Shown in pieces: positions 30,580 through 32,556 of a stretch of DNA of 45,643 nucleotides (positions are counted from its first letter, which is position 1; each line of letters opens with the position of its first letter). The notes below the pieces were generated by a model, which worked only from the letters and a program-made list of their open reading frames with translations, did no database searches and was not told where the DNA came from. A program made the position numbers and the translations under genes. The stretch comes from Escherichia coli (lineage in GTDB: Bacteria; Pseudomonadota; Gammaproteobacteria; Enterobacterales; Enterobacteriaceae), in assembly GCF_003334355.1 (NCBI RefSeq), contig NZ_QOWP01000030.1; one strand, given 5' to 3'.

Positions 30580-32556
30580 ATGGTATTGTTTTATCGGGCA
30601 CGCTGGCGCGACTATAAAAACGATCAAGTGAGGATCATGATGAATCTGACGACTCTGACCCACCGCGATGCGTTGTGTCTGAATGCGCGCTTTACCAGCC
30701 GTGAAGAGGCCATCCACGTGTTGACTCAACGTCTTGCTGCTCTGGGGAAAATTTCCAGTACTGAGCAATTTCTGGAAGAAGTGTATCGCCGTGAAAGCCT
30801 TGGCCCGACCGCCTTAGGTGAAGGGTTGGCTGTGCCGCATGGCAAAACTGCTGCGGTAAAAGAAGCGGCGTTTGCGGTCGCCACACTCAGCGAGCCGCTT
30901 CAGTGGGAAGGCGTTGATGGCCCGGAAGCAGTTGATTTAGTGGTGCTGCTGGCGATTCCCCCCAATGAAGCGGGTACTACGCATATGCAACTGCTGACAG
31001 CGCTGACCACGCGCCTTGCGGATGATGAGATTCGGGCGCGTATACAGTCGGCGACGACGCCTGATGAGTTGCTCTCGGCGCTGGATGACAAGGGAGGCAC
31101 GCAACCTTCTGCCTCTTTTTCCAACGCGCCAACTATCGTCTGCGTAACGGCCTGTCCGGCGGGTATTGCTCACACCTATATGGCTGCGGAATATCTGGAA
31201 AAAGCCGGACGCAAACTCGGCGTAAATGTTTACGTTGAAAAACAAGGCGCTAACGGCATTGAAGGGCGTTTAACGGCGGATCAACTCAATAGTGCAACCG
31301 CCTGTATTTTTGCGGCTGAAGTCGCCATCAAGGAGAGTGAGCGTTTTAATGGCATTCCCGCGCTTTCAGTGCCTGTTGCCGAGCCGATTCGCCATGCAGA
31401 AGCGTTGATCCAACAAGCGCTTACCCTCAAGCGTAGCGATGAGACGCGTACCGTACAGCAAGATACGCAACCGGTGAAAAGTGTCAAAACGGAGCTGAAA
31501 CAGGCACTGTTGAGCGGAATCTCTTTTGCCGTACCGTTGATTGTCGCGGGGGGCACGGTGCTGGCGGTCGCGGTATTACTGTCGCAAATCTTCGGGCTAC
31601 AAGATCTGTTTAATGAAGAAAACTCCTGGCTGTGGATGTACCGCAAGCTGGGCGGCGGGCTGCTCGGAATTTTGATGGTACCGGTGCTCGCGGCCTATAC
31701 CGCCTATTCTCTGGCAGATAAACCGGCGTTAGCGCCAGGCTTTGCGGCTGGACTTGCCGCCAACATGATCGGCTCCGGGTTTCTCGGCGCGGTCGTTGGC
31801 GGATTGATAGCCGGTTACTTGATGCGCTGGGTGAAAAATCACTTGCGTCTTAGCAGTAAATTCAATGGATTCCTGACTTTTTATCTCTACCCGGTGCTCG
31901 GTACGTTGGGAGCGGGCAGTCTGATGCTGTTTGTGGTGGGGGAACCTGTCGCCTGGATCAATAACTCGCTTACCGCCTGGCTGAACGGTCTGTCAGGAAG
32001 TAACGCGCTGTTGCTGGGTGCCATTCTCGGTTTTATGTGTTCCTTTGACCTTGGAGGGCCAGTGAATAAAGCCGCTTATGCATTCTGCCTGGGCGCAATG
32101 GCGAACGGCGTTTACGGCCCGTATGCCATTTTCGCCTCCGTCAAAATGGTTTCGGCATTTACCGTAACCGCTTCCACGATGCTCGCACCGCGCCTGTTTA
32201 AAGAGTTTGAAATTGAGACCGGGAAATCCACCTGGCTGTTAGGGCTGGCAGGTATTACCGAAGGGGCGATCCCGATGGCGATTGAAGATCCGCTGCGGGT
32301 TATTGGTTCGTTTGTGCTGGGCTCTATGGTAACGGGCGCTATTGTCGGTGCGATGAATATCGGCCTTTCGACACCCGGTGCCGGCATTTTCTCGCTCTTT
32401 TTACTTCATGATAATGGCGCGGGCGGTGTTATGGCGGCAATTGGCTGGTTTGGCGCGGCATTGGTGGGGGCTGCAATCTCGACTGCAATTCTCCTGATGT
32501 GGCGGCGTCACGCGGTTAAGCATGGCAACTATCTGACTGATGGCGTAATGCCATAA
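30580..32556 (+). CDS. mngA: PTS 2-O-alpha-mannosyl-D-glycerate-specific EIIABC component (fructose-family)
   Basis: 658-codon ORF with EIIA, EIIB ([18 protein letters not shown]) and a polytopic EIIC domain. The true start is probably ATG 30637 or 30640; see findings. Confidence 0.9.

Follow-up and report, generated by a model that had tools for sequence, protein, structure and literature searches.

We found that mngA, which encodes the mannosylglycerate PTS permease of Escherichia coli, is highly likely to be translated from the ATG at position 30640, yielding a protein of 638 aa, by way of a GTGAGGA Shine-Dalgarno sequence 5 nt upstream; the first 19-20 codons of the gene as annotated in K-12 are, with little doubt, non-coding. 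Instead, the DNA from 30580 to 30639 would hold the core promoter of mngAB together with its short leader. The window, by which we mean the whole stretch of DNA that was analysed, is a 45,643-nt E. coli chromosome segment that carries sucD, mngR, mngA and mngB (Table 1); it differs from MG1655 at 32 positions in 3,900 nt around mngA, and the strain is thus a non-K-12 E. coli.

The longest mngA open reading frame in a program-made list extends from ATG 30580 to 32556 (658 aa) and equals b0731 of the K-12 reference NC_000913.3 (765984..767960, 658 aa). Among the annotations inspected, however, only K-12 b0731 used this long frame. For each of the other six E. coli genomes that we inspected in RefSeq (214-4, BL21(DE3), Eco889, M9, EC12 and 1217KP), PGAP placed the mngA start at the equivalent of 30640 (1,917-nt CDS, 638 aa). 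An earlier sequence-only reading of this DNA had proposed that the annotated start is 19 to 20 codons too long. The count was right, in that 30637 and 30640, where two neighbouring ATGs lie in frame (GTGAGGATCATGATGAAT), are codons 20 and 21 of the long frame, but the word "annotated" holds for the K-12 reference only. Both versions of MngA circulate in public data: the 638-aa form falls in a cluster of 6,448 members in a large protein collection, and the 658-aa form is recorded on 814 contigs in the type found in the window and on at least 1,000 contigs in the K-12 type. Thus, the short start is already known to current automatic annotation and to a curated family model, while the K-12 reference entry is still long.

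Table 1. Features of the mngR-mngA-mngB locus in the window
Feature	Position	Strand	Remarks
mngR (farR), GntR/HutC-family repressor gene	29749..30471	-	ORF; annotated mngR in inspected E. coli genomes; divergent from mngA
Predicted mngR promoter	30502..30529	-	-35 TTTACA (30529..30524), 16-nt spacer, -10 CATAAT (30507..30502); consensus scan
Tandem AATACAAATA repeat, 11-bp period (minus strand TATTTGTATT twice)	30531..30551	-	Probable main MngR operator, inferred; direct repeat
CRP-like site AGTGAAATTGATCACA	30562..30577	.	TGTGA-N6-TCACA with 1 mismatch; near-invariant in alignment
ATG opening the longest ORF (K-12 b0731 start)	30580..30582	+	Judged not to be a start codon; no Shine-Dalgarno pairing; overlaps conserved half-site
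Third MngR-like half-site GGTATTGTTT (TGTATTATTT in most Enterobacteriaceae)	30582..30591	+	TGTATTNWTT with 1 mismatch; conserved block
-10-like hexamer CACGCT	30599..30604	+	Best mean TATAAT match at offset 21 after CRP-like site
Proposed 5' untranslated leader	30605..30627	+	Poorly conserved, indel-rich, gapped
Shine-Dalgarno GTGAGGA	30628..30634	+	Anti-SD duplex -7.6 kcal/mol; GTGAGGAT conserved across Enterobacteriaceae
mngA CDS from proposed true start, 638 aa, stop included	30640..32556	+	PGAP, conservation in species, domain order EIIA-IIB-IIC, NF007293
mngB alpha-mannosidase, 877-aa ORF	32574-35207	+	ORF list; annotated mngB in K-12

Ribosome binding and protein domains

We paired the 18 nt before each candidate start codon with the 3' end of 16S rRNA and compared the resulting duplexes with those at random positions in the window. 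The duplex before 30580 had an energy of only -1.6 kcal/mol, and 63% of random positions were equal or better, in agreement with the earlier claim that no obvious ribosome-binding site precedes this ATG. In contrast, the duplex before 30637 and 30640 was among the top 1.8% of random positions. Thus, the Shine-Dalgarno sequence expected of a genuine start is found before 30640, at a spacing of 5 nt, and is lacking before 30580. The coordinates that the sequence-only reading had given for ATG 30580, for GTGAGGA (30628-30634) and for ATG 30640 were all exact.

Translation might instead begin at the adjacent ATG 30637, which would give a protein of 639 aa (MMNLTT...). The 639-position NCBIfam profile NF007293 begins its alignment at residue 20 of the long form, which is encoded at 30637, and an ATG occupies this position in all E. 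coli alleles examined as well as in several Citrobacter, Kluyvera and Buttiauxella loci. Against this, most other genera have CTT, TTT, CTG, GTG, TTG, GAG, GCG or ATC at this codon, PGAP picks 30640 in every inspected genome, and GTGAGGA is separated from ATG 30637 by 2 nt (TC), compared to 5 nt for ATG 30640. Because of this difference in spacing, and because the preceding codon is not ATG in most genera, we prefer 30640 and consider a start at 30637 unlikely.

The protein domains agree with a start at 30640. Positions 6-142 of the 144 in the Pfam model PTS_EIIA_2 (PF00359) correspond to residues 30-169 of the long form, or residues 10-149 of the short form; residue 8 of E. coli PtsN aligns to long-form residue 21, and residue 11 of the MtlA-IIA chain aligns to long-form residue 31. 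When we compared NF007293 to the long ORF, we obtained a score of 1285.7 bits (cut-off 763), with profile positions 1-639 of 639 aligned to residues 20-658. In all of these Pfam, PDB and NCBIfam alignments, which begin at residues 20-30, the first 19 residues of the long form were unmatched. These alignments bear out the statement of the sequence-only reading that a PTS EIIA domain would normally begin at 30640, and the short form has EIIA near its N-terminus, as expected for proteins with an N-terminal EIIA.

The literature searched yielded no data on the transcription start, ribosome profile or N-terminal peptides of mngA, and mngA, mngR and b0731 are all absent from the supplements of Kim 2012, Nakahigashi 2016 and Yan 2018. 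Since mngA is repressed by MngR in ordinary media, the missing start-site data come as no surprise and argue neither way. Text searches of the literature returned reports at the level of expression only, namely that SlyA overexpression raises mngAB 3.4-fold and that CsrA represses mngA.

Conservation across species and within E. coli

We scanned one genome per species and obtained 80 orthologous mngA loci, from Escherichia, Citrobacter, Enterobacter, Kluyvera, Lelliottia, Buttiauxella, Serratia, Rahnella, Hafnia, Aeromonas, Vibrio, Photobacterium and others. A divergent mngR homologue was present upstream of mngA in every locus with enough flank, and in the window mngA likewise lies between the divergent mngR upstream and mngB downstream, the genomic context of the MngA family. 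At the codon aligned with 30640, 78 of the 80 loci have ATG, followed by N/K-L-T-x-L-T; in the two exceptions, the start is one or six codons earlier. Upstream of this position, we observed an in-frame stop fewer than 20 codons away in 49 of 80 loci and fewer than 10 codons away in 31, and in 62 of the 80 no in-frame ATG occurs at a distance of five codons or more upstream. Moreover, the distance from a conserved TCACA to the mngA ATG is 60, 61, 62, 63, 64, 65 or 79-84 nt across loci; these distances are not multiples of three apart, and therefore the upstream frame is not preserved.

We aligned 27 Enterobacteriaceae and compared column identity by codon position. Over the 29 codons that follow 30640, it was 0.78, 0.88 and 0.64 at positions 1, 2 and 3, respectively, a coding pattern, compared to flat values of 0.67, 0.70 and 0.66, with gaps, in the extension. 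Thus, the extension from 30580 to 30639 is without a coding signature or codon periodicity, and conservation of both the start and the downstream frame among orthologues is found for 30640 and not for 30580.

Variation within E. coli also separates the two starts. The mngA locus is present in 3,868 of 5,426 complete E. coli genomes. K-12-like alleles, which are carried by about 86% of the genomes with the locus, have an open long frame. In the Eco889-type allele, TAAATGTATT replaces the window's TAATGGTATT, such that the ATG is shifted one base out of frame and AAT occupies the codon at -20; this exact 86-nt allele occurs in 535 complete E. coli genomes. In Escherichia sp. MOD1, the closest of the other Escherichia species compared, the codon at -20 is ATA. 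Thus, the proposal that ATG 30640 is the real start was upheld by its presence in 78 of 80 species, by upstream stops and frame-breaking indels, by at least 535 genomes without ATG 30580, and by PGAP and NCBIfam.

Two further variants were considered. In the mouse isolates M6, M9, M11, M15 and M19, the A-run at 30614-30619 has lost 1 nt; in this M9-type allele a stop lies 7 codons upstream of 30640 and the short ORF is intact. As the frameshift affects a homopolymer, it may reflect an error of sequencing or assembly, and we give it little weight. The deletion in 1217KP removes the whole control region and is uninformative as evidence on the start codon.

The mngR-mngA control region and the origin of ATG 30580

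We lined up the mngR-mngA intergenic regions at the mngA ATG and observed sharply conserved blocks with variable DNA between them. The hexamers of the predicted mngR promoter, which read ATTATG (30502-30507) and TGTAAA (30524-30529) on the + strand, are conserved blocks in the Enterobacteriaceae alignment. The probable tandem AATACAAAT operator (30531-30551) stands out in this cross-species comparison: the 8-mer ATACAAAT at the core of the repeat occurs in 73 of 75 regions (74 orthologous loci and the window), with column identities of 0.9-1.0, and TGTATT-containing 10-mers with an 11-bp period are conserved in the mngR-mngA intergenic region from Vibrionaceae to Escherichia. The CRP-like site is the only match to TGTGA-N6-TCACA with at most one mismatch in the 45.6-kb window. 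Sites that agree at 8 or more of the 10 positions were found in 63 of 75 intergenic regions (7.7 expected from shuffles), and sites that agree at 9 or more were found in 31 of 75 (0.6 expected).

Directly downstream of the CRP-like site lies the third MngR-like half-site, which is in the opposite orientation to the tandem repeat and whose first base is the G of ATG 30580. Of 63 loci, 37 have the sequence [TG]GTAT starting 4 nt downstream of the CRP-like site, and in 12 others the interval is 7 nt. The -10-like hexamer follows, with 29.5 bp between its first base and the centre of the CRP-like site (30569.5). In the window, this hexamer agrees with only 2 of the 6 positions of TATAAT; its variants are CACACT in K-12, CACAAT in most Enterobacteriaceae and TATTAT in Vibrionaceae. 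A fit to xAxxxT was found at offset 21 in 68% of 62 loci and at offset 20, with the TATTAT of Vibrionaceae, in a further 27%, and the offset from CRP-like site to -10-like hexamer expected of class II geometry is therefore conserved in 95% of these loci. We also note an 18-nt inverted repeat (30499-30516 and 30590-30607, 83% complementary), which mirrors the -10 regions of both divergent promoters.

The promoter and operator assignments that we infer for mngA rest on this conservation, and from them we suggest the following model. MngR would bind TGTATT-type repeats. Since the tandem pair abuts the -35 of mngR, its occupation could mediate autoregulation of mngR; the single MngR-like copy between the CRP site and the mngA -10 might act by occlusion of RNA polymerase. 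cAMP-CRP would activate mngA from -41.5, and transcription would start near 30611 (K-12 coordinate about 766015), downstream of ATG 30580, yielding a leader of about 29 nt followed by the Shine-Dalgarno sequence and ATG 30640. ATG 30580 would then lie near -31 of the mngA promoter and hence outside the mRNA. The sequence-only reading had placed the MngR operator and promoter in the 60 nt upstream of 30640. We find that this stretch does appear to carry regulatory DNA, in the form of the half-site at 30582-30591 and the position-conserved -10-like hexamer at 30599-30604, but that the main tandem operator and the CRP-like site lie just upstream of it (30531-30577).

The exact transcription start of mngA is uncertain, as the E. 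coli -10 is weak. The TATAAA at 30613-30618 is a possible alternative -10, but it would put the CRP-like site near -55.5, a non-standard position for activation; even with this hexamer, transcription would still start downstream of 30580. A simple sigma-70 scan of 30300-30800 returned no + strand promoter and only two minus-strand (mngR) candidates. An activator-dependent promoter with no recognisable -35 would explain the lack of a + strand match, and the empty scan fits such a promoter, although on its own it counts for little. Folding of the predicted leader RNA (30611-30675) yielded no structure beyond that of shuffled controls (z = -0.5).

We searched the literature and found no report of CRP control of mngA; likewise, mngA and mngR are absent from the text and supplements searched for the genomic SELEX of CRP (Shimada 2011, PMC3105977).

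The ATG at 30580 probably exists because it is part of the putative operator motif. We think that it arose by accident, in that the conserved operator sequence, (A)ATGTATT or ATGGTATT, contains ATG, and that the spacing in K-12-like alleles happens to put this ATG in frame, without a stop before 30640.

If the K-12 annotation is right after all, ATG 30580 is a start codon on a transcript from an upstream promoter, and some E. coli make a 658-aa MngA with a 20-residue extension. Such a promoter for mngA, TTAATA-19-GATAAA, was proposed from sequence alone and would transcribe ATG 30580 (Shimada et al. 2014, PMC3946193). We give it little weight, as its basis is the sequence alone, its spacer is 19 nt long, and its GATAAA lies in a poorly conserved stretch. 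The long form is also the K-12 RefSeq annotation, is carried on many public contigs, and has a frame that is open in K-12-like alleles. Nevertheless, ATG 30580 lacks Shine-Dalgarno pairing and lies inside a conserved regulatory block, and at least 535 E. coli genomes, Escherichia sp. MOD1 and essentially every other species either lack this codon or have it out of frame; the extension that ATG 30580 would open shows no codon periodicity, varies in length in ways that break the frame, and precedes every EIIA domain alignment. We therefore regard a start at 30580 as extremely improbable.

Nor is it at all likely that both starts are used, with the short form predominating and a small amount of a long isoform arising from read-through transcription in K-12-like strains. 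This arrangement has no positive support and faces the same counter-evidence as the start at 30580, and transcription is predicted to start mainly at about 30611, which lies downstream of 30580. We also considered that a K-12-like substitution in the MngR half-site (ancestral AAATGTATT to AATGGTATT) made an in-frame ATG that is used conditionally for a 658-aa MngA, from an upstream or read-through transcript. This seems very improbable to us; if true, the N-terminal extension would be of very recent origin, derived from operator and promoter DNA, and polymorphic within the species (about 86% present, about 14% absent). Thus, we retain translation from ATG 30640 as the preferred reading.

Consequences and comparison with known systems

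The K-12 reference and the UniProt-type 658-aa entry include 20 residues that are very probably never made, and exact copies of the long form are found on more than 1,800 public contigs. Cloning, tagging or modelling MngA from the K-12 entry would thus add a spurious peptide and count promoter and operator DNA as coding. As a by-product, the analysis provides a conserved map of the mngR-mngA control region that includes a candidate class II CRP site for which we found no report in the literature searched; this site offers a testable tie between the use of mannosylglycerate and catabolite repression.

MngA of K-12 (hrsA, b0731; NP_415259.1, 658 aa; EIIABC) is the product of the same gene, in the same sucD-mngR-mngA-mngB neighbourhood as in the window; within the hypothetical extension, residue 8 is R in the window and H in K-12. 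MngA as annotated by PGAP in RefSeq (for example WP_001054864.1, 638 aa) starts at 30640, as the sequence-only reading had proposed, whereas the profile of the NCBIfam equivalog NF007293 (PTS 2-O-alpha-mannosyl-D-glycerate transporter IIABC) begins one codon before the PGAP start, at 30637.

In class II CRP-activated promoters, such as galP1, the CRP site is centred at -41.5 and the -35 is weak or absent. The predicted mngA promoter shares with them the distance of 29.5 bp between the centre of the CRP site and the hexamer, measured relative to the predicted -10, as well as the lack of a recognisable -35. It differs in that the -10 of E. coli mngA is very weak (CACGCT or CACACT), and its CRP site is a candidate only. 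For the repressor, a member of the GntR/HutC family, Quail et al. in 1994 and Sampaio et al. in 2004 are said to have described FarR/MngR sites as TGTATTAWTT-type repeats. Repeats of this type agree with the conserved motif in the window, where the TGTATT-type repeats would be the putative MngR/FarR operator.

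Control region between mngR and mngA

The interval between mngR and mngA contains a CRP-like site, which is kept in mngR-mngA regions from Vibrionaceae to Escherichia, and a conserved -10-like hexamer lies at class II distance from it. We found no report of CRP control of mngA in the literature searched. We also observed that the -10 regions of the divergent predicted promoters of mngR and mngA are mirrored by an inverted repeat, and thus the mngR-mngA control region is a partial palindrome. On the far side of mngR, the sRNA SdhX was placed between sucD and the mngR end.

Features of the mngR-mngA locus (window coordinates)
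Feature	Position	Strand	Sequence	Remark
SdhX (b4764), sucD 3' UTR sRNA	about 29646-29746	+		offset from K-12 annotation
Inverted repeat, 18 nt	30499-30516 / 30590-30607		GGGCATAATGGC / GGGCACGCTGGC	83% complementary
CRP-like site	30562-30577		AGTGAAATTGATCACA	between mngR and mngA
mngA translation initiation region	30625-30642		AAGUGAGGAUCAUGAUG	GGA within Shine-Dalgarno

Natural variation at the locus

We searched 5,426 complete genomes of E. coli with window 30400-30800 and found any match in only 3,868 of them; the mngR-mngA region appears to be missing from about 29% of sequenced E. coli strains. Where the region is present, its alleles differ. E. coli 1217KP carries a natural deletion, equivalent to window about 30450-30597, that fuses the 5' part of mngR straight to the DNA just 5' of the mngA leader, with loss of the putative operators, the CRP-like site and ATG 30580. 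Despite this deletion, PGAP calls mngA in 1217KP at its full 638 aa, together with a shortened mngR. A much smaller change, the loss of 1 nt from the A-run within the proposed leader (equivalent to window 30614-30619), was seen in E. coli M9 and is common to this mouse isolate and its four sisters (M6, M11, M15 and M19); it reflects either clonal variation or a sequencing artefact of the homopolymer.

The mngA translation initiation region

A divergent allele of the Eco889 type, shared by 535 complete genomes, reads GTGAGAACC where the window has GTGAGGATC (529-537 of the Eco889 locus, equivalent to window 30628-30636). The Eco889-type Shine-Dalgarno is weaker than that of the window, before the same ATGATG. 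RNA folding yielded no significant structure in the predicted mngA leader. Since CsrA is reported to repress mngA (PMC5694010), we consider the GGA in the mngA Shine-Dalgarno a candidate CsrA contact.
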